37,373 bases of DNA, taken from the IMG/VR virus record IMGVR_UViG_2565956720_000009; one strand, given 5' to 3'. This DNA is from a virus (Duplodnaviria > Heunggongvirae > Uroviricota > Caudoviricetes). A program made the position numbers and the translations under genes. Shown here piece by piece: positions 5,104 through 25,137 of this stretch. The notes under the pieces were generated by a model that was not told where the DNA came from, made no database searches, and saw only the letters and a program-made list of their open reading frames with translations. Each line of letters starts with the position of its first letter. Within the stretch, counting starts at the first letter, position 1.

Positions 5104-8091
5104 ATGAGCTTAAGCGATCAGGTGGTAATGGCCACCAGCATAGAAACGCTGATCGAGCTGCTAAAAAACCTGCCCAATTACGGGCGGGTTTCGTATGTGG
5201 TGACAGCGAAGGGAGACGAGGTAAAAACAGCGTTTGATATCGTCGATGCCTCAGCTCTTTTGGTATCCAATACTCTGGACGGGAAAATTAACCCTGACTA
5301 TCCCCAGGAACTTCAGCCGCGCGACCGGACCCGCGCATCCAGTCTTCTTCAGGTCAACCAGATATCCAAGGATTTGCGTCCTGCCCAGCTTACCGATTCC
5401 GGTTTATCCAGCCATGGCGCGCCGATAATTGGTGAGGACAATGCCGTTGAGTCAGGTAATGGACGGACCATGGGGATCATCAAAGCCTATCAGGACGGCA
5501 ATGCGGATCGGTATCGTGAGTACCTGATTGATCATGCGACCGAATTCGGCATACGACCTGAAAAGGTTGAATCAATGGCGGCTCCGGTACTGGTGCGCCG
5601 CCGGTTAACTAAGGTTGACCGCGTTCAGTTTGCCAAGGACTCAAATATTTCTGATCTTCAGGAAATGGCAGCCAGTGAAAAGGCTTTTGTTGATGCTGAC
5701 AGCATAACTCCGGCGATGATGGCGCTGTTTAACCCATCAGAAAGCGGAGATCTGCTTAGCCGCAGTAATGACGCGTTTATTCGCGGATTCATGACGCAAG
5801 TTGGTGCCACACAGGCTGCTGGCCTTGTAACGGAAGATGGGCGACCAACACGGCAACTTGTAGACCGTATACAAAACGCGATCTTTGCCAAGGCATATAA
5901 GGATGCGCGCCTGGTAAGGATGGTTGCAGAAGAACCTGATCCGGATATGCGTAATGTTCTGACGGCGCTTAATGCGGCAGCCAATGATTTTGTCCAGATG
6001 CAGGCTTTATCAGGAGAAGCGCACAAGCAGGCTGTGACAACTATTGTTGATGGCATTGAGACAGCGGATAGCCTCGATAAAAAGGCGCTGGCGGCATTGA
6101 AAGATGCGGTAGACCTGGTAAGGCAATCGAAGGAGTCAGGCCAGCATATTACCGATGTTATTGCTCAGGGGGATATGTTCAGCGAAACGGCCCCGGAAGT
6201 GAAAGCACTCGCGTTGTTCATCGTCGCGAATAACCGTAGCGCGAAGCGTATGGCCACCGCCTTTAAGTTGATGGCTCAACGTATCAATGATGAGTTACAG
6301 CACCAGGGCCAGGCGCTGGGGGATATGTTTGGCGGCGGCGATGTGTCGTTACAGGATATCCTTCGCCAGGTGTCTCAGGAACTGGAAAACGAAGGCATGC
6401 AAGGGATATCCGGCGGTCTTTTCGAGTCCGTTTCCGGCGGTAGTTACAACGGTGTTGCTCCGTATACCAGTTTGCTATTACATCGGGCATCCGGCATCAA
6501 AGACATTATTCATCTGATCAGGCTGCTTTCCCGCACAGATCCCCAGGATGAACAGCTTGTACAAGTGCTTGCGCATTTTGTTCGAATGCCTGTTGCCGAC
6601 GTGAAAAAATGGTGCCGATTATTCGGTATCAGCAATTCGTTACTTCGCGGCTTGTTAAATCACGCATCCTCCCTTGGGCGCGATGGCTTTGACGAGATAG
6701 CGCAGGCGATAAAAAACGGAGATATGCCACCAGCTATTGACTGGTTTTCCATTCGCCCAACCAGGGTGAAAGCATTCCTTAGCGCGGCGCATTCGGCATC
6801 ACCATTGGCAGAAATGGTTCAGAGGTTGTCGCTCATATTCACAGACCATACCGCGTTGGGTGATCTGACTCTGGACGAGATGAAAGAAGCCTCCATTCAG
6901 TGGGCCGATCAACAAAATGAGGTTAACTCTGACTTCTTGCCAGCATTCAGGAAGGCCGTTAGTAAAGCTGATGATGCCCGTGGAATTCTGAAGGCATTTA
7001 AGGCATTGCAAAGTCAGGTTAATAAACATGTCGGTGATATCGATGGGGTAACGGCGGAAGGCAGGGATATCCTTAAAGAGCACGGCATAACGCCAGAGTT
7101 TATTGATGAGATCAGGACGGATATGCAGCGTGAGGTCGTATCGTCCCTGCAAATCGTAGCCAGAGCGTTGGCGGATGCTAATCCGAAGAGTGCGGCCATT
7201 GTTAACCGTGTTATTGGTGATATTGAAGCATCGGAGGGCATGGGGGCGCTGAAACTCTTCCTTTCGCGAGCGTTTAATCCTAACGGCAATATTCTCCCCG
7301 ACATTATTGGTGAGGCTAAAAAGTATGTCAGCGAAGAAGAACTTGAGCATCTTGACCAACTACTTAAGCGATTCTCATATAACCCGCAGACACGCTGGCA
7401 AATGAATCAGCGAAGTATGGGTTCGGTCCACGAGAAAGTGTTATCTGCCATGAATAGTGCGATAGCCAACTCATCCGTATCTGAAGAAAAAGCTCTTGAG
7501 TGGGCCGACTCTTTTATCACGGAAGAAGTGGAAGAAGCCCGCGCTGGACAGAGTGGTGGGATAGACCTGCGCAAGGAACTTGCTGATATTTATCGCCTGA
7601 CCGGCGGGAAAATATCGACCTTATCAAAGGTGGTTCACCACCAGGGAAGGGCATATGCAAATCTTAATGGTGTTGTTGCTGTCAATTTGAACGATGAAAA
7701 TGCAAGTGCACTGTGGCACGAGCTGGGTCATCATCTTGAGTACAGTAACCCTGGTTTGTTAGAGAAAGCCCGGTCATTCCTGAAGGCCAATGTTGAAGGG
7801 GATAAGCCATCTTTCGTTAATATCGGTGGGCGTGGCAAGCCTGAATGGTGCTTCAGATCTCGATTGAGTAATATTTATATGGCGAAGGTATACCCGCCAG
7901 CCTCAGTAAGTAACACCGGGAAAATTCGGCAGAAATCACCGACTATTTCCAAAACGTCAGCAACGGAAGTATTCTCTATGGCTCTTCAGTTGTATCATGA
8001 CAAAGAGGCCGCTGCCGCATCACTGATGAATGGTGACGGATTGCTGGAACTGTTATTAGGTGTGGCAAAGGAGCTAAATAATGCAGATTAA
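5104..8091 (+). CDS. ddrB: DdrB-like large internal head protein (dar operon)
   Basis: 995-aa ORF following ddrA; size and position match recalled P1 DdrB. Confidence 0.6.
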   Translation: MSLSDQVVMATSIETLIELLKNLPNYGRVSYVVTAKGDEVKTAFDIVDASALLVSNTLDGKINPDYPQELQPRDRTRASSLLQVNQISKDLRPAQLTDSGLSSHGAPIIGEDNAVESGNGRTMGIIKAYQDGNADRYREYLIDHATEFGIRPEKVESMAAPVLVRRRLTKVDRVQFAKDSNISDLQEMAASEKAFVDADSITPAMMALFNPSESGDLLSRSNDAFIRGFMTQVGATQAAGLVTEDGRPTRQLVDRIQNAIFAKAYKDARLVRMVAEEPDPDMRNVLTALNAAANDFVQMQALSGEAHKQAVTTIVDGIETADSLDKKALAALKDAVDLVRQSKESGQHITDVIAQGDMFSETAPEVKALALFIVANNRSAKRMATAFKLMAQRINDELQHQGQALGDMFGGGDVSLQDILRQVSQELENEGMQGISGGLFESVSGGSYNGVAPYTSLLLHRASGIKDIIHLIRLLSRTDPQDEQLVQVLAHFVRMPVADVKKWCRLFGISNSLLRGLLNHASSLGRDGFDEIAQAIKNGDMPPAIDWFSIRPTRVKAFLSAAHSASPLAEMVQRLSLIFTDHTALGDLTLDEMKEASIQWADQQNEVNSDFLPAFRKAVSKADDARGILKAFKALQSQVNKHVGDIDGVTAEGRDILKEHGITPEFIDEIRTDMQREVVSSLQIVARALADANPKSAAIVNRVIGDIEASEGMGALKLFLSRAFNPNGNILPDIIGEAKKYVSEEELEHLDQLLKRFSYNPQTRWQMNQRSMGSVHEKVLSAMNSAIANSSVSEEKALEWADSFITEEVEEARAGQSGGIDLRKELADIYRLTGGKISTLSKVVHHQGRAYANLNGVVAVNLNDENASALWHELGHHLEYSNPGLLEKARSFLKANVEGDKPSFVNIGGRGKPEWCFRSRLSNIYMAKVYPPASVSNTGKIRQKSPTISKTSATEVFSMALQLYHDKEAAAASLMNGDGLLELLLGVAKELNNAD

Positions 8092-8389
8092 AATCGCAGC
8101 GCCATTAGGCGGAGATGCCATTATCGAATTTGATGATAATGAAGAAGTTTCCGGGCGTTTAAGCATTATCTCCGGTGACATTACCGAGGACATGATCGCT
8201 GAAGCCATAGCTGGGGCAAATCCCAATAGCTATATGGGATTCGTTAACACCCTTGATGCTCCCGCAAGTGATGTTCTCCGAACGCTGCATCTTTACGCTG
8301 GCTGGTTTGTTGATTGGCCAGCAGTAGATGGTGGCGATGAGGACGACGACGATGATTTTGGTGATCATGCAGACCAGATCGTATATTGA
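8081..8389 (+). CDS. small acidic protein, last gene of the dar operon
   Basis: 102-aa ORF overlapping the ddrB end by 11 nt; poly-Asp C-terminal tail (DGGDEDDDDDFGD); followed by a strong terminator. Confidence 0.45.
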   Translation: MQIKIAAPLGGDAIIEFDDNEEVSGRLSIISGDITEDMIAEAIAGANPNSYMGFVNTLDAPASDVLRTLHLYAGWFVDWPAVDGGDEDDDDDFGDHADQIVY

Positions 8390-8391
8390 AG

Positions 8392-8424
8392 AAATCCCGC
8401 CAATCGGCGGGATTTGTTGTTTAT
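8392..8424. terminator. bidirectional rho-independent terminator between convergent genes
   Basis: Perfect 10-bp stem AAATCCCGCC/GGCGGGATTT with a 4-nt loop followed by GTTGTTTAT; lies between the stop of the dar operon and the stop of the HipA-like gene. Confidence 0.7.
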
Positions 8425-9725
8425 GCCAGGCGGGCTATGCGTATCTTACAATCATCTAGGTGGATGCGTAGCGCTTCTAAACATGGAGTAAAGTTAGCTG
8501 AGAATTTGTCGGACTCACAGGCCAATGCATAAAATTTTTCAGCCAATTCAAGAGATTCATCCCATATTTTTCGACTTACAAAGTCTGGTAGTGCTGTTTT
8601 TCTAAGCTCATTAGATATTGCTCCCCCAGAGCGTGGAGCAAAACCCATAGGTAACATGTCATAGGCTGGAGCAATATGATATGGGCGTCCGTGGCTACTA
8701 ATAAACGATAGGTTACCATTATGCATATCGGTATTGCCTATTAGCAAACCAAAAGACCATAGCCTTGTTGCTATAATAATCGCATCAGGATGGACGCACT
8801 TATTTTTTACCAACTCTTTAACCAGCAAGGGCCATGTTGCTCTTGCATTCCCAACAAATTCTGCATCAAGTGCACGAAGTGAGAATACACCTACCCGACC
8901 TAGTTGACCAACACGATCAAATCGGGGAATTTCCAAGAATCTCTGACCGTTATAATCAAAAACTTCTGTTTCTACCCCCAGAACTTTTAATGCGAGATGT
9001 TCAGCAAACAAGAGATCTCTCCAACGCTCACTTATAGGGGTGTCGTTAGGCGCAGAGAATTTCACTAATACATGTCCACGCTCTGTGAAAGTACAAAATT
9101 TGGGTTGTTCACCTCCAGCAGATGAACCGGGCACATCACCTTCACCAGCAGCTAAAGCTAATACAGGATATTCACTTTCACGATTAACAGGAACAGGAGG
9201 CTGCATCTCTAAAAAATGCGTGCGTGCTTGCTCTCCAATTAACAAATTACCAACAACATCATGCCCATGCTTAAGTAAGGCTTTGATCACGTCAGTATCT
9301 GACCATTGCTCTGGATTTGAGGGAAGGTTAAGTTCAAGAGCATATGCTGATGCATATGCTCTTCCAAGGAAGCCTTGTGGACGCATATCAAATAACCACC
9401 AAGGTAACCCATCGCTATGCCTGTTATTTTTCCCTTCCTCAACCATAACATAGCCTTCTGGCCTCACCGGAATGAGAGTACCAAGAACGCAAATACACCC
9501 CTCTTCAGTTATACGATAAATGGGGACTGATTCGAATCCTCTAAAAGAGTCTCGTAAAGCATATTGAATAGATCTTCCATTTCCGATCCTAACGATTTCA
9601 TCACCAAGATCTCTTAATGCTCTAGATATCGTTGGTTGGCTAACACTTAGTCTTTCAACCAATTGTCTTGGTGTCATAGGACCTTGATTGAGCAAATTAC
9701 GGATTGTTGTTGCATGTATAGCCAT
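8421..9725 (-). CDS. HipA-family Ser/Thr kinase toxin with N-terminal HTH domain (YjjJ/HipH-like)
   Basis: 435 aa from the ATG at 9725 (MAIHATTIRNLL...). N-terminal HTH (MTPRQLVERLSVSQPTISRALRDL); P-loop-like SAGGEQPKF; catalytic-loop-like LIGNTDMHNGNLSF; APAYDMLP motif. AT-rich relative to flanking phage genes. Confidence 0.85.
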   Translation of the reverse strand: MAIHATTIRNLLNQGPMTPRQLVERLSVSQPTISRALRDLGDEIVRIGNGRSIQYALRDSFRGFESVPIYRITEEGCICVLGTLIPVRPEGYVMVEEGKNNRHSDGLPWWLFDMRPQGFLGRAYASAYALELNLPSNPEQWSDTDVIKALLKHGHDVVGNLLIGEQARTHFLEMQPPVPVNRESEYPVLALAAGEGDVPGSSAGGEQPKFCTFTERGHVLVKFSAPNDTPISERWRDLLFAEHLALKVLGVETEVFDYNGQRFLEIPRFDRVGQLGRVGVFSLRALDAEFVGNARATWPLLVKELVKNKCVHPDAIIIATRLWSFGLLIGNTDMHNGNLSFISSHGRPYHIAPAYDMLPMGFAPRSGGAISNELRKTALPDFVSRKIWDESLELAEKFYALACESDKFSANFTPCLEALRIHLDDCKIRIARLA

Positions 9726-9742
9726 AGTTTTAATTACTATTG

Positions 9743-9771
9743 TGAATAGATTAATGAATAGATTCATGAAT
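9743..9771 (-). promoter_or_regulatory. direct-repeat array (TGAATAGATT x2 plus partial third copy), candidate operator upstream of the HipA-like gene
   Basis: TGAATAGATT at 9743 and 9755 and TGAAT at 9767 (12-bp phasing), 18-46 bp upstream of the kinase start codon. Confidence 0.3.
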
Positions 9772-9829
9772 GCGTACAATAGCAAGCAAAACGGGAGGTG
9801 TCACTAATTTAGGTAAGTTAAAAAGACTT

Positions 9830-9836
9830 CTTTAAA
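9830..9836. repeat. target-site duplication (left copy) CTTTAAA
   Basis: Identical 7-mer CTTTAAA directly abuts both IS termini (9830-9836 and 11038-11044). Confidence 0.7.
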
Positions 9837-11037
9837 TGTATTAGTCGCGACTTGATCTGACACTGAGCCTTGAAAGGTTGAGAGTTACCGGTTTTGATAT
9901 GGGTGTCTAATCCTTATACAAAACACGAGGTAACTCTCATGCTTCATACTAACAATCCCATCATCAAACACAAAGTCGGTCTGCTCAACCTCGCCGAAGA
10001 ACTCGGTAACGTATCAAAAGCCTGTAAAATCATGGGGGTGTCACGCGACACATTTTACCGCTATCAGGAACTGGCTGAGGAAGGCGGTATTGATGCTTTG
10101 GTTAATCAGAACCGCAGAGTCCCGAACATAAAGAACCGTGTCGATGAAGCGACTGAACGTGCAGTTGTTGAGTACGCAATTGAGTTTCCGGCTCATGGGC
10201 AGCACCGGACCAGTAATGAACTGCGTAAGAAAGGCGTATTTATCTCCGGCAGCGGCGTACGCTCCATCTGGCAACGACACGACCTGGAGAACTTCCGTAA
10301 ACGTCTGAAAGCACTTGAAGAAAAAGTCGCCAGAGAAGGGATCGTACTCACTGACGCTCAAATCGCAGCGCTAGAAAAGAAAGCCCAGGATGATGAGGCC
10401 AACGGTGAAATCGAAACGGCACATCCGGGGTATCTGGGGTCACAGGACACCTTCTACGTGGGCAACCTGAAAGGTGTTGGCCGTATCTATCAGCAGACGT
10501 TCGTGGATACGTACTCGAAAGTGGCACACTGCAAACTATATACGAGTAAAACGCCGATCACCGCAGCTGATTTGCTCAATGATCGTGTACTGCCGTTCTA
10601 CGAGTCTCAGGGGCTGCCGATGCTGAGAATCATGACCGATAGGGGAACAGAGTACTGTGGTAAAGTTGAGCAGCATGATTATCAGTTGTATCTGGCTATC
10701 AACGACATTGACCATACGAAAACGAAGGCGATGTCTCCGCAGACGAACGGCATCTGCGAGCGCTTCCATAAGACCATTTTGCAGGAGTTTTATCAGGTTA
10801 CGTTCCGTAAAAAGCTATATACAAACCTGGAAAGCCTGCAAATGGATCTGGACAAGTGGTTGTGGCATTACAATAATGAGCGAACTCATCAGGGAAAAAT
10901 GTGCTGTGGGCGTACGCCAATGGAAACGTTACTTGATGGAAAACGCATCTGGGCCGAGAAAAATTTAAGCCAGATGTAATCTGACAGATACCTGTATAAA
11001 TAACCGGTAACTGTCAGATCAGGTCTGAGCTAATACA
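9837..11037 (+). mobile_element. intact insertion sequence (about 1.2 kb, single DDE transposase; IS481-family-like)
   Basis: Imperfect 27-bp terminal inverted repeats TGTATTAG...TGATCTGACA at 9837-9863 and 11011-11037 (ends TGT...ACA); single transposase ORF; flanked by 7-bp direct repeat CTTTAAA. Confidence 0.85.
9939..10979 (+). CDS. IS transposase (N-terminal HTH plus rve-type DDE integrase core)
   Basis: 346 aa from the ATG at 9939 (GAGG RBS); N-terminal HTH region (VSKACKIMGVSRDTFYRYQ) followed by an integrase-core-like C-terminal region ending ...YNNERTHQG; family assignment by architecture only. Confidence 0.85.
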   Translation: MLHTNNPIIKHKVGLLNLAEELGNVSKACKIMGVSRDTFYRYQELAEEGGIDALVNQNRRVPNIKNRVDEATERAVVEYAIEFPAHGQHRTSNELRKKGVFISGSGVRSIWQRHDLENFRKRLKALEEKVAREGIVLTDAQIAALEKKAQDDEANGEIETAHPGYLGSQDTFYVGNLKGVGRIYQQTFVDTYSKVAHCKLYTSKTPITAADLLNDRVLPFYESQGLPMLRIMTDRGTEYCGKVEQHDYQLYLAINDIDHTKTKAMSPQTNGICERFHKTILQEFYQVTFRKKLYTNLESLQMDLDKWLWHYNNERTHQGKMCCGRTPMETLLDGKRIWAEKNLSQM

Positions 11038-11044
11038 CTTTAAA
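11038..11044. repeat. target-site duplication (right copy) CTTTAAA
   Basis: See left copy. Confidence 0.7.
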
Positions 11045-11106
11045 AGATGATGACTAGGCGCTTTAACTGCTAGCTGACATAACAATTGGCCATTTGACGT
11101 GGAGTT

Positions 11107-11129
11107 CCCCGCCAACTGACGGGGTTTTT
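11107..11129 (+). terminator. rho-independent terminator (plus strand) just outside the IS right end
   Basis: Stem CCCCG/CGGGG with an 8-nt loop followed by TTTTT; would stop plus-strand read-through leaving the IS. Confidence 0.45.
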
Positions 11130-11130
11130 A

Positions 11131-11925
11131 TTAGTCACTTTCTGTTTCTTCTGGAATGTTTTCTTGCGGTTCTGTTAATGCAGCACGACACAGGTTCCGG
11201 GCATTGGCTATAGCCACACTTTTGACTTCATCCGTCATCGTGCAGGTAATGTACTGATCGAGTTCTTCAGCGCGGATGATGCTTTTGCCAATCAGAAACT
11301 GTATTTGCCAGAGCAGATCAGCATCCATAATCAGAATTTCTGCCGGGCCTTCAGGACCAGCCGGGAAGGAAACATAAGACTGTTTGCCCAGGCCGATAAC
11401 TCGACAACTTGCTTCAAGAATTGCGCGATTGAGGTCTGACTTTGTAACTGAAACAGGTTGATTTTCACCTGCGATTACGCCGTTGACATGGATGTGGAAT
11501 GGCATGTAGCTTGAAATTCGCTCTACTTTCCATACGCCAGCAAGCGATCCTTCATGCAGCACAATGGGGGTAACCGCGAGTTTCATCTCACCATATAACT
11601 GCTGGCAGATAGCTGGATTGCTGAATACATCCAAAGGTTCACACTCAAACAGCGGCGCAATCTGTATGAGGTCCATCATGGTCATACCAGGGGTACGAGC
11701 AGTAATGAATCTGCGCATGCCAGTATCCATTGTGCGCCAGATAGCTACACCATGCTTTTTGCTCACTTCTTCAGTAAAGCCAAGGTGGCACATGATGGTT
11801 TTTTCGATAGCCAGATCAGAGATCGAAACCTTTTCGCCAGGTACACCATCATTATTGATGGTCACTTCGACACTCTGGCCATTACGCAGGCGGTATTGAA
11901 TTGTTTTAGTATTTTGTGCTGTCAT
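11131..11925 (-). CDS. hypothetical protein (conserved phage protein of unknown function)
   Basis: 264 aa from the ATG at 11925 with a strong AGAGGAAAG RBS (the track ORF extends to a GTG at 12093 without an RBS); no recognisable motif; lies between ssb and the IS. Confidence 0.6.
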   Translation of the reverse strand: MTAQNTKTIQYRLRNGQSVEVTINNDGVPGEKVSISDLAIEKTIMCHLGFTEEVSKKHGVAIWRTMDTGMRRFITARTPGMTMMDLIQIAPLFECEPLDVFSNPAICQQLYGEMKLAVTPIVLHEGSLAGVWKVERISSYMPFHIHVNGVIAGENQPVSVTKSDLNRAILEASCRVIGLGKQSYVSFPAGPEGPAEILIMDADLLWQIQFLIGKSIIRAEELDQYITCTMTDEVKSVAIANARNLCRAALTEPQENIPEETESD

Positions 11926-12122
11926 AGTCTTTCCTCTGCTTAAAACCTGATGTATTGCGCCTTCAGGTGGGGCAGGAATGTTTTCCCACCAGCGAACGCA
12001 ATATCTCGGGGTGTTCTTTTCGTGAAAAGCGTGTGCCATTGCCAACTTTGGCGTTTGTTTGCGAGTTCGTGCTTTTGTCGGCGTCTGGACCACCGCTTTT
12101 CTTTCAGTCGTTTTTTACACAT

Positions 12123-12611
12123 TCAAAACGGAATATCGTCGTCAAAGTCCATTGGAGGTTCGTTATTGGCGCTGCTCTGAGGTTTGCCGCCACCGCTGTA
12201 TTGCTGGTGGTTTTGAGGTTGGTTTGACTGCCCCCAGCCATTTGAGGACTGTGAATCGTCGCGGCGAGTGCCGATCATTTGCATGGTGCCGCCCTGGCTG
12301 ACGATAATTTCCGTCGTGTAACGTTCTACACCGGCGTCATCAGTCCACTTACGGGTTTTAAGTTTCCCTTCGATGTAGACCTGAGAACCTTTTCGTAAAT
12401 ACTCACTCGCAATTTCAGCAAGTTTTCCGAACAAAACGACTTTATGCCATTCTGTTTGCTCTTTCTGTTGGCCCGTTTGCTTATCGCGCCATGATTCATT
12501 CGTTGCGATGCTGAGTCTTCCGACTGCGCCGCCATTTGGTATATACCTGATCTCCGGGTCTTGCCCCAGGGTACCAATCAGGATGACTTTGTTTACACCG
12601 CGTTGTGCCAC
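12123..12611 (-). CDS. ssb: single-stranded DNA-binding protein
   Basis: [30 protein letters not shown]...[30 protein letters not shown] is the classic SSB OB-fold; Gly/Gln-rich tail ending in the acidic DFDDDIPF; GTG start with AGGT RBS. Confidence 0.95.
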
Positions 12612-12630
12612 TTTTCTTACCTAATAAAAT

Positions 12631-12647
12631 AAATTAATTAGAGCAAT
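12631..12647 (-). promoter_or_regulatory. C1 repressor operator-like 17-mer upstream of ssb
   Basis: Reverse complement ATTGCTCTAATTAATTT matches the recalled P1 C1 operator consensus ATTGCTCTAATAAATTT at 16/17; about 20 bp upstream of the ssb start. Confidence 0.55.
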
Positions 12648-12780
12648 AATGTATATCTTTGAAACGTGGCTAACAAGTGATTTGCATTATCCTGTGCCTT
12701 CTAAAGGGATCGAGTCAGTCGGTATTGGCTGTGAATGAGTGTTTGTCCTGGAGCGTAAAAAATTCGCTTATGAGGTCTTT

Positions 12781-23950: not shown

Positions 23951-25081
23951 TTACACAGTATCAATGTGTCTGCTAAGGAATCTCCCGAACTGATTTGTTG
24001 ACCCAAAATAGTTAGGATAAGCCTTTTTAAGAGATTTAATGTTGTTAGTGGCAAGCAGCACCGCAATTAATACTTCAGGATCCGCATCATCCTTATTAAG
24101 TTCCTGGAGGGCTTGTTCCGATTCTTTTTTCCTAAAAGGTTTCACAGAAACAAGAAACTTTCCAGTATCCTTGCCATTTTTTGTTATGGCGTTTCTCATC
24201 CTCACCAAAAAGAATCCATTATGGTTTTTGGGCAGGCTTTTCTTTAGGTTTGCATCTGATGTCAGCTTCATTGCAAATGTATATGTACTTAATTTTGAGC
24301 GAACAGATAAAGCCTCCTCCAATGTTTTAAGCTCTGTTTGATAATTTTTGATGGTTTCATCATCAAGAATACAGGCACCTTCATCATGAGCAACTAGGCA
24401 TCCAGAAAGATAAAAAAATCTTCTCCACTCAGGGTGACCTTCATTAGAAGTTTTCAGCTTAATATTTTCAAGTGTATCTATTATCTCCAGACTTGTTGCC
24501 CAAGCATGTTGGAGTTCTGTTCTTAGTTGTACTTCGATTTTAGTTTTACTCCACGGATTGTTACCGTTTTCTTCATCAAAACAACTATATGCAAGGTGAA
24601 TGCCACTATATCCGCTTGGCTTTGGAGTTAAATAGTCATATTCCTTTAAGATTTTATGCTTGGAGCGACTTTTAACTAGTCGGTCTTTTAGTTTCTTTAG
24701 TTGTTCGATGTTTCTAACTATAGCTCTACATCCGCCAATATCCTGCATTCTAGTAAGGGCTATTGCATTATTTGTTGCGCCGCCGTCAAGACTTGGACGC
24801 TCCAGTTTATCAATTATTGTGCTAAGTCTTTTTAGGCGTCTTGCAACAATAATCTTATTCTCTTTATCAACTTTTTTTGCAGCCCTATCAAGATGATTTT
24901 TCATTAGCATCAATGGATATAAATGAAGCTCGCGGAAATTTTGAATCATTTTAATTGCTTCTTCTCGCTCTGCGCCCTCACAACCATGTCTAATTTTTCT
25001 GGCTGCTTTTTCTATTTGAGATTTCGAATATTTAAGTTCGCATTTTTGGCTTTGATATACTTCACTGCCCATTACTAACAT
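23951..25081 (-). CDS. RelA/SpoT-homologue synthetase-domain protein; fused toxSAS toxin-antitoxin (CapRel-like)
   Basis: Synthetase motifs ARRLKRLSTIIDKLER, DIGGCRAIV, GYSGIHLAY and EVQLRTELQHAWA in the N-terminal half, plus a ~170-aa C-terminal extension. Monocistronic and AT-rich. First ATG at 25081; alternative ATG at 25072 gives 373 aa; the track ORF begins at a TTG at 25090. Confidence 0.85.
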   Translation of the reverse strand: MLVMGSEVYQSQKCELKYSKSQIEKAARKIRHGCEGAEREEAIKMIQNFRELHLYPLMLMKNHLDRAAKKVDKENKIIVARRLKRLSTIIDKLERPSLDGGATNNAIALTRMQDIGGCRAIVRNIEQLKKLKDRLVKSRSKHKILKEYDYLTPKPSGYSGIHLAYSCFDEENGNNPWSKTKIEVQLRTELQHAWATSLEIIDTLENIKLKTSNEGHPEWRRFFYLSGCLVAHDEGACILDDETIKNYQTELKTLEEALSVRSKLSTYTFAMKLTSDANLKKSLPKNHNGFFLVRMRNAITKNGKDTGKFLVSVKPFRKKESEQALQELNKDDADPEVLIAVLLATNNIKSLKKAYPNYFGSTNQFGRFLSRHIDTV

Positions 25082-25137
25082 CCAGTTCAAATGATTAATG
25101 TGTTGTTACATATAATAACAAATCAAGCTAGAAATCA

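Follow-up and report, generated by a model that had tools for sequence, protein, structure and literature searches.

A phage-plasmid allele of the hipH/yjjJ kinase-toxin family and a 12-bp-phased, operator-like repeat array in a P1-like cargo slot

The DNA analysed here, referred to as the window, is the whole 37,373-nucleotide stretch of IMG/VR virus record IMGVR_UViG_2565956720_000009, a P1-like phage-plasmid with the genes darA/ddrA/ddrB, ssb, lyz, pro, prt and darB. Between hxr and isaA it carries hipH (yjjJ), which, as judged from family models, alignments and motifs, is almost certainly an intact, monocistronic member of the hipH/yjjJ kinase-toxin family. The gene is preceded by three direct repeats in 12-bp phase, and a further copy of the repeat is embedded in its own codons. 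Taken as a whole, the locus probably consists of a single, autorepressed gene for a HipH kinase toxin, carried as cargo. The gene itself is not new, being a divergent phage-plasmid allele of a known and already annotated family. New are the operator-like element shared across the family, the copy of it embedded in codons and its correspondence with a repressor site of Escherichia coli K-12; none of these is described in the literature searched, which, with incomplete coverage, also yielded no description of a phage-plasmid copy of hipH or of a HipH operator.

An intact hipH gene with conserved kinase and helix-turn-helix motifs

The gene and the motifs of its product lie in the window as follows.

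8421-9725, minus strand: hipH/yjjJ-family gene for a protein of 434 amino acids, composed of a winged helix-turn-helix (HTH) domain at about residues 1-60 and a HipT-like Ser/Thr kinase core (open reading frame (ORF), NCBIfam, Pfam, RefSeq label on the identical gene).
9546-9725, minus strand: N-terminal winged HTH, residues 1-60, with the recognition helix VSQPTISRAL at residues 28-37 (Pfam, AlphaFold2).
9096-9128, minus strand: Gly-rich, ATP-binding loop GSSAGGEQPKF, residues 200-210 (translation; identical in K-12 HipH).
8712-8735, minus strand: catalytic motif NTDMHNGN, N331-N338, with the catalytic Asp D333, H335 and N338 (sequence reading; conserved).
8649-8666, minus strand: Mg-binding motif AYDMLP, A354-P359, with D356 (sequence reading; conserved).

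The coding sequence runs from an ATG at 9725 to a stop codon at 8421-8423. An earlier reading of the window, made from the sequence only, had given the protein 435 residues; this holds as a count of codons including the stop, the protein itself having 434. ORF calling extends the frame upstream to a TTG at 9785, but homologues and the RefSeq annotation start at the ATG at 9725. The protein scores 531.7 bits against the NCBIfam equivalog model NF007297 ('HipA family toxin YjjJ'; cut-off 401), with residues 4-434 covered, and Pfam detects HipA_C (3e-15) together with HTH_5, MarR_2 and related HTH models of the ArsR/MarR type at residues 4-47. No Pfam match to Couple_hipA or HipA N-subdomain-1 was found in it. 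Alignment with HipH/YjjJ of E. coli K-12 (b4385) extends over the full length (434 vs 443 amino acids, 35% identity, E 5e-90), and the nearest non-plasmid proteins are chromosomal 'YjjJ' of Pantoea, Gibbsiella, Serratia and Enterobacter, with 68-72% identity. The sequence-only reading had called a HipA-family kinase with a fused N-terminal HTH and proposed a profile search and a comparison with YjjJ/HipH; the Pfam matches, the family model and the K-12 alignment bear out that call.

Motif conservation was evaluated by aligning 77 family proteins from genome sequences, and the kinase motifs are among the best-conserved columns. Nearly all residues of the Gly-rich loop are at least 95% conserved and the others at least 80%. 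S201 and S202 belong to the former group; two conserved serines by this loop have been noted for HipH and proposed as autophosphorylation sites (PMC8262856). The lysine motif VLVKF, with K222, is identical in K-12 HipH. The catalytic and Mg-binding motifs are not identical to those of K-12 HipH throughout but keep the catalytic residues: D333 aligns to K-12 D342 and D356 to K-12 D364, the two residues changed in kinase-dead YjjJ (PMC9948734). The P-loop, catalytic loop and Mg-binding YD motif that had been picked out by eye are all present, and loss of catalytic residues is not seen in the 77-protein alignment.

The recognition helix, (V/I)SQPT(L/V/I)SR in the family alignment, is conserved as strongly as the catalytic loop, with S29-Q30-P31-T32 and R35 at least 95% conserved. 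An AlphaFold2 model built from 26 sequences has a mean predicted local distance difference test score (pLDDT) of 56 and is confident for the winged HTH and the C-terminal helices only; within it, residues 1-60 form three helices and a beta-hairpin, i.e. a winged helix, at pLDDT 72-88. By sequence, the sole relatives in the PDB are HipT-type chains (Legionella; E ~8e-6), to which the kinase core aligns best.

The family has been described as a monocistronic group, named 'HipH', whose HTH 'may function to bind DNA', in a phylogeny of HipA-homologous kinases (PMC8262856). For K-12 HipH, kinase activity on RpmE/L31, CsrA and HipH itself has been reported, along with the toxicity of the family (PMC9948734).

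A repeat array accompanies hipH across unrelated neighbourhoods

Upstream of hipH and within its first codons, three features were identified.

9776-9804, minus strand: promoter-like site with -35 GTGACA (9804-9799), a 17-bp spacer and the TG-extended -10 TATTGT (9781-9776); called by consensus match, hence a putative promoter.
9743-9776, minus strand, which is the sense strand of hipH: operator-like array of three 12-bp-phased direct repeats (CGCATTCA / TCTATTCA / TCTATTCA).
9563-9574, minus strand: intragenic unit AGA TCT ATT CAA, codons R51-S52-I53-Q54, 178 bp from the proximal array unit.

Two phased direct repeats and a partial third had been noticed here in the sequence-only reading, and they stand, at 9743-9776. 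On the plus strand, TGAATAGATT occurs at 9743-9752 and 9755-9764 and the degenerate TGAATGCGTA at 9767-9776, in exact 12-bp phase. In the sense orientation, the 80 nt that precede the ATG are GTGACA-(17 nt)-TATTGT-ACGCATTCATGAATCTATTCATTAATCTATTCACAATAGTAATTAAAACT, so that the array begins directly after the -10 with its degenerate, promoter-side unit and finishes 17 nt ahead of the ATG. The second plasmid allele of hipH keeps the hexamers (its -10 being TATGGT), the TG, the spacer in unchanged form and length, and the ATTCA cores.

Within the window alone the repeat is only weakly significant, at least two matches with no more than three mismatches being obtained in 8 of 100 shuffles. In the family comparison it is overwhelmingly non-random. 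Arrays, scored as one or more pairs of ATTCA cores with a spacing of 11-13 bp in the 90 nt upstream of the gene, were found at 66 of 77 hipH loci from Gamma- and Betaproteobacteria, compared with 1 of 10,281 control windows drawn from these loci. The unit has the consensus wATCTATTCAww, the modal copy number is three, and the spacing is exactly 12 bp in 111 of 141 successive pairs. In 36 of 67 arrays a -10-like TAnnnT hexamer directly adjoins the first unit; the end of the last unit mostly lies 5 or 15-17 nt ahead of the start codon. The same unit in the same phase is present in Mangrovibacter, Tatumella, Rosenbergiella and some 60 betaproteobacterial loci (48-69% protein identity), and K-12 hipH has AATCTATTCAAGTATCTATTCACGAATCTATTCATTA directly ahead of its ATG. 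The surroundings of the gene do not share this constancy: five chromosomal hipH loci have no conserved neighbour, being set among unrelated housekeeping genes that vary from genus to genus, and genes for amylase, MCP, SecF, GGT and LysR are among the neighbours recorded. The array is the sole feature that accompanies hipH across these neighbourhoods and onto the plasmid. Beyond the hipH locus, no further operator arrays that might constitute a HipH regulon on the phage were found in the 37-kb window.

The repeat unit recurs inside the gene, TCTATTCA lying at 9565-9572 within the wing of the HTH domain. Codon use was compared in the 61 family genes with Ile at position 53 (median gene G+C 63%). 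Ile53 is encoded by ATT in all 61 genes, as against 37% elsewhere in the same genes; Ser52 by TCT or TCC in 59 of 59 (25% elsewhere); and Arg51 by AGA or CGA in 46 of 47 (12% elsewhere). Because codon use at 51-53 departs so sharply from that in the rest of the same genes, the DNA word GATCTATTCA, held at synonymous sites, is the signature of a putative embedded cis-element. The distance from the intragenic copy to the proximal array unit is 166 or 176-178 bp in most loci. No weight was given to helical phasing between the two, these distances being constrained by protein length and shared descent.

K-12 hipH is without the intragenic copy at codons 51-54. It has a fourth CTATTCA at genome position 4621670-4621676 (locus L004), 65 bp upstream of its three-unit array and just past the deoD terminator, which is a possible auxiliary site, analogous to the intragenic copy of the 434-residue subfamily.

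The HipH winged HTH as probable binder of the repeats

Where the motif differs, the helix differs as well. The Alkalimonas locus (L074) has the helix DRSTVTR and TATTGA repeats in 12-bp phase instead, and two Burkholderiaceae metagenome-assembled genomes (L079, L081) have the helix SRPSLMR, ATCGTTAC twice upstream of the gene and no ATTCA. Among the loci compared, the upstream motif thus co-varies with the HipH recognition helix, and these loci represent natural specificity variants that could be used in swap experiments. A second line of evidence comes from K-12, for which Reg-Seq placed repressor sites of yjjJ at -24..+18 (MarA) and at +30..+45, with no factor assigned to the latter (PMC7567609). 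The site at +30..+45 maps to TCTATTCACGAATCTA, that is, to repeat 2 and the start of repeat 3; the library ends at +45.

Since the array travels with the gene, the helix is conserved, the exceptions co-vary and the Reg-Seq site coincides with the repeats, the HTH of HipH itself is the most plausible binder, and autorepression of hipH through the repeats is the best-supported mechanism; we judge it probable on these comparisons. The winged HTH would bind head-to-tail to the 12-bp-phased ATCTATTCA repeats, from the -10 and transcription start across the leader, and the extra copy at codons 51-54 may assist this binding. HipH would thereby repress its own promoter and keep the toxin at a low level in the lysogen; upon relief of repression or inhibition, the kinase would phosphorylate host proteins and cause growth arrest. 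The N-terminal winged HTH would stand in for the separate HipB of hipBA. We infer HipH as the binder, repression by its binding, the kinase as the toxic activity, and the trigger. The sequence-only reading had proposed the repeats as an autoregulatory operator for the protein's own HTH; of this, the operator-like nature is strengthened by family conservation, helix co-variation, the intragenic copy and the Reg-Seq overlap, while binding by HipH belongs to the inferred part.

Several observations weigh against this mechanism. Chromatin immunoprecipitation with exonuclease treatment (ChIP-exo) of myc-tagged YjjJ in K-12 gave no binding sites (PMC8464067); the tagged protein may perhaps have been too scarce or inactive under the conditions used. 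The Reg-Seq assignments also count here, with MarA named for the adjacent site and no factor for +30..+45 (PMC7567609). The units of the array, like the intragenic one, all read on the sense strand and probably form part of the transcript, which makes a role at the RNA level possible. The loci compared are related by descent, and the counts overstate independence. Finally, substrates and toxicity are extrapolated from K-12 HipH, the sole experimentally studied member, for which alone kinase activity and growth inhibition on overproduction are known (PMC9948734) and to which the window protein is 35% identical. One study attributes HipH toxicity not to the kinase but to an HTH-dependent DNase activity, with c-di-GMP as antitoxin (PMC11452175).

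Part of this evidence would also suit repeats that serve another host factor or act in the mRNA leader, as a site for an RNA-binding protein or small RNA or as an element for translation without a Shine-Dalgarno sequence. Every copy lies on the sense strand, either downstream of the -10 and ahead of the start codon or within the coding sequence, and in the window, in K-12 and in most loci the last repeat is followed by no Shine-Dalgarno sequence before the ATG; the ChIP-exo result agrees with this explanation, and Reg-Seq measures RNA, leaving DNA- and RNA-level effects inseparable. We nevertheless regard it as rather unlikely. The element follows the gene through Gamma- and Betaproteobacteria and onto the plasmid, so that a host factor would have to be equally universal, and the motif changes along with the recognition helix of HipH. 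The first unit overlaps the -10 or lies right against it in many loci and would be transcribed only in part, K-12 has its extra copy ~65 bp upstream of the array, and a head-to-tail arrangement in strict 12-bp phase is characteristic of DNA binders that oligomerise. No known RNA family (Rfam) was detected in 8000-12700.

A single-gene locus

The neighbourhood of hipH consists of the following features.

8081-8389: hxr, downstream neighbour of hipH and convergent to it (gene order).
8392-8415, no strand: hairpin rich in G+C that separates hipH from the convergent hxr and resembles a terminator on either strand (terminator scan).
9837-11037, plus strand: IS481-family (ISSod13-like) insertion sequence (IS) of 1,201 bp with a transposase ORF at 9894-10979 (domains, inverted repeats, target duplication).
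11038-11129, no strand: remaining hipH-isaA spacer, which includes a hairpin (11107-11124) and closes the cargo cassette on the right.
11131-12093, minus strand: isaA.
12123-12611, minus strand: ssb.

No HipB- or HipS-like partner was detected by Pfam among the window neighbours (hxr, the IS and isaA), and neither Hxr nor IsaA has any Pfam domain. The lack of a HipB-like partner noted from the sequence is therefore confirmed, these neighbours carrying no HTH (the HTH_29 of the transposase apart) and no HipS-like domain. Hxr, which is called an Xre homologue in the P1 annotation, was considered as a hidden HipB-like partner and rejected: Pfam finds no HTH in the Hxr of the window, the gene converges on hipH, and every P1-like element has it, with or without hipH. 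A linked protein antitoxin, the criterion for a type II toxin-antitoxin system, was found neither in the window nor in homologous loci. The RefSeq product name 'type II toxin-antitoxin' reflects HipA homology and not a two-gene module.

The single-gene layout bears directly on plasmid addiction, i.e. stabilisation of the P1-like plasmid prophage by post-segregational killing, which we consider very improbable. Addiction needs an unstable antidote apart from a stable toxin, and here there is one polypeptide with no partner gene. As low-copy plasmids, P1-like elements already depend on phd-doc, and plasmid-borne hipBA is reported to be a stabilisation system (PMC11487325). However, with phd-doc already on the element, about 94% of P1-like plasmids do without hipH.

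Relation to known HipA-family systems

HipB operators are palindromic, whereas the repeats of the window are direct, with a 12-bp period. HipBA of E. coli K-12 likewise has a Ser/Thr kinase toxin of the HipA fold and is autoregulated through an HTH-mediated operator array (PMC8262856). The window locus differs from it further in having neither HipB nor the HipA N-subdomain-1 and in the fusion of the DNA-binding domain to the kinase. HipBST of E. coli O127 and Legionella HipT have the kinase core most alike, with two serines in the Gly-rich loop, but the window locus has no HipS or HipB genes and its HTH is fused at the N-terminus.

A similar layout is that of K-12 HipH, assigned to clade X of the HipA-homologous kinases (Gerdes et al. 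2021, PMC8262856). It is likewise a single gene without adjacent antitoxin and has the same N-terminal HTH and HipT-like core, with GSSAGGEQPKF identical and N-[ST]-DMH-x-GN and YDMLPM conserved, and the same upstream TCTATTCA repeats in 12-bp phase. The N-terminal extension of ~100 amino acids with an HTH that is expected of clade X is found in window HipH by Pfam and AlphaFold2. K-12 hipH lies between deoD and lplA and has a distal upstream copy of the repeat, whereas window hipH lies on a phage-plasmid and has an intragenic copy; window HipH also belongs to the 'YjjJ' subfamily of Pantoea, Serratia and Enterobacter (68-72% identity), unlike K-12 HipH (35%).

CapRel of phage SJ46, reportedly shown by Zhang et al. 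in 2022 to be a fused single-protein toxin-antitoxin on a P1-like element, shares the concept of a toxin and a regulatory domain in one polypeptide but differs in enzyme family and slot. HipAD/DS-6 is a HipA-family kinase system whose catalytic residue is needed for phage defence (PMC13092281), and it provides a precedent for a defensive role; it consists of two genes, with a DUF3037/DUF1829 partner, and is likened to window HipH by kinase family only.

hipH occupies a variable cargo slot of P1-like phage-plasmids

The gene order is ddrB-hxr-(hipH)-(IS)-isaA-ssb in the window and ddrB-hxr-isaB-IS1-isaA-ssb in P1. Homology to P1 stops at 8387 (end of hxr) and restarts at 11130 (stop codon of isaA). 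The P1 isaB-IS1-isaA region is the same interval, with flanks to 8387/8415 and from 11130 and with an IS between the cargo gene and isaA; it has isaB and IS1 where the window has hipH and an IS481-family element. The placement of the locus where P1 has IS1 and IS1-associated genes, as given in the sequence-only reading, was accordingly correct, with hipH in place of isaB.

The hxr-isaA interval is known as 'variable region 2', one of eight variable cargo regions of P1-like phage-plasmids (PMC9603915). Its left boundary is the hairpin at 8392-8415, homology to P1, RCS47, SJ46 and p1303_95 ending at 8387-8423. The slot holds nothing extra in SJ46, a 364-residue protein in p1303_95, the nmpC porin in P7, an IS481-family element followed by IS26/blaSHV-2 in RCS47, and, in vB_EcoM-673R5 (locus L086, 2673-4026), a dGTPase split into two ORFs that matches a PADLOC defence model at 290 bits. 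The AT-richness ascribed to the hipH locus is right in direction but mild, with 38-44% G+C over hipH against 46-53% in the flanks.

Among PLSDB plasmids, 29 carry a gene identical or 97.7-100% identical to window hipH, as do 25 complete E. coli genomes, and RefSeq already labels these genes 'yjjJ: type II toxin-antitoxin system HipA family toxin YjjJ'. The adjacent ddrB-hxr segment is found on ~480 PLSDB plasmids, which puts hipH on ~6% of P1-like plasmids. The exact HipH protein is recorded in 672 assembly blocks, and 10 of the 10 contexts listed are the P1-like slot. In IMG/VR we found 14 hipH loci, of which 6 carry the P1-like allele of the window; two other loci inspected are ambiguous, one of them beside dnaB and the other, probably host flank, next to a prophage integrase where the contig ends. 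No homologue was found by tblastn in 50,697 deposited phage genome records.

A 99.9% match to the hipH cassette was also found on a chromosome-typed record, NZ_CM148631.1 (E. coli PK-F-10122), at 4437568-4439014, which suggests an integrated P1-like element or an assembly join.

Selection on the plasmid-borne gene

The two plasmid hipH alleles differ at 14 synonymous and 9 non-synonymous codons without any disruption. The resulting ratio of non-synonymous to synonymous change (pN/pS) of 0.19 indicates purifying selection on plasmid-borne hipH. The nearest chromosomal relative of the plasmid gene is only 72% identical, with no close donor among those sampled, so the gene was not acquired recently from any sampled donor. 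Both results argue against a neutral passenger, that is, a chromosomal hipH recombined into an AT-rich hot spot where it merely persists. The slot does gather unrelated DNA and ISs, such as IS1 in P1, IS481-family elements in the window and RCS47, IS26/blaSHV in RCS47 and the porin gene in P7, and hipH is carried by a minority of P1-like plasmids. Yet frame, motifs and operator cores are intact in both alleles, and the gene is present in hundreds of assemblies; we regard a neutral passenger as improbable.

A later IS insertion upstream of hipH

The IS that the sequence-only reading had noted beside the kinase gene is an IS481-family element. Its transposase has N-terminal HTH_29 and rve/rve_3 domains (Pfam), its ends are inverted repeats (TGTATTAG...), and it is flanked by 7-bp copies of the duplicated target, CTTTAAA, at 9830-9836 and 11038-11044. 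The hipH locus of plasmid pE2-2 is free of the IS, and its flanks meet exactly at a single CTTTAAA; the IS is thus a later insertion, independent of hipH. It lies 33 bp away from the promoter-like -35, on the upstream side, and the promoter has stayed intact. A metagenome scaffold (L094) has IS and hipH together as in the window.

RCS47 (locus L003, 4400-5640) carries the same IS, 99.6% identical, at another site in the hxr-isaA slot and no hipH. Since the insertion sites differ, the two insertions are independent. BLAST had hinted at shared junctions, and RCS47 was considered as a hipH-deletion derivative with the same insertion; this was rejected, as its IS follows directly after the hxr hairpin in an SJ46-like arrangement. 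Together with IS1 in P1, three independent IS insertions have occurred in one short AT-rich interval.

Possible role on the phage-plasmid

A one-protein abortive-infection or superinfection-exclusion function, raised as a hypothesis alongside addiction in the sequence-only reading and in which infection by another phage would relieve autorepression or cis-inhibition and the kinase would stop the cell, is compatible with the autorepression mechanism and adds a biological role to it. We give it a minor chance. The slot is a recognised variable cargo region (PMC9603915), which in a sibling element holds the dGTPase with a PADLOC defence match at 290 bits; the window encodes in addition a RelA/SpoT protein of the toxSAS kind (PADLOC PDC-S33), HipAD/DS-6 defends against phage in a kinase-dependent manner (PMC13092281), and the plasmid gene is under purifying selection. 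HipH itself, however, has no significant match in PADLOC-DB v2: the best match of the kinase region, PDC-M03A (E ~1e-3), covers 33 residues of the catalytic loop, and the HTH region has only a marginal WYL match (7e-4). Chromosomal hipH genes are found in housekeeping contexts, between deoD and lplA in K-12, unlike typical defence genes; 0 of the 50,697 deposited phage records encode a homologue; and the gene is on only ~6% of P1-like plasmids.

Cis-inhibition by the HTH domain of HipH has been suggested (PMC8262856). A more elaborate, joint proposal, which we hold to be quite doubtful, is a one-protein immunity or exclusion module whose winged HTH would act both as autorepressor, with the ATCTATTCA array looped to the intragenic copy, and as cis-inhibitor or sensor of the kinase; an invading phage or plasmid titrating or displacing the winged HTH would then release an abortive-infection kinase. 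On this proposal, as chromosomal and P1-borne HipH share the operator core, the element might also rewire the host's own hipH.

Irrespective of its role, the wATCTATTCAww array, with its 12-bp phase and codon copy, is an obvious candidate for the HipH operator; it accounts for the K-12 Reg-Seq site that lacks a factor, and it offers a direct experimental handle on HipH regulation. A divergent hipH kept on a widespread P1-like lineage, in a slot that exchanges cargo, also provides a setting where a selectable phenotype is measurable, be it defence, exclusion or lysogen persistence; otherwise, it is one more accessory toxin gene on a phage-plasmid.

Additional observations on the region and on other cargo

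In a consensus scan, the hairpin at 11107-11124, after isaA, has a T-run on the plus strand only, and C1-controlled ssb-isaA transcription might therefore read into hipH in IS-free plasmids. The IS of the window has minus-strand terminator-like sites at 10985-10969 and 10740-10722, which would insulate hipH.

The ~70 bp at 9830-9900, comprising the target duplication and the left inverted repeat, recur with 95-99% identity in ~3,000 E. coli chromosomes, where no feature is annotated. This looks like a solitary IS-end remnant fixed in E. coli.

Beside ssb, SJ46 (locus L085, 2712-3557) encodes a protein with a Tad2-like (Thoeris anti-defence) domain. At 23951-25090 on the minus strand, the window encodes a 379-residue RelA_SpoT protein that matches the PADLOC candidate model PDC-S33 at 290 bits; it is a small alarmone-synthetase toxin (CapRel/toxSAS kind) whose gene takes up a second cargo position, after darB, and sibling plasmids have a RelA/SpoT gene at the matching position.

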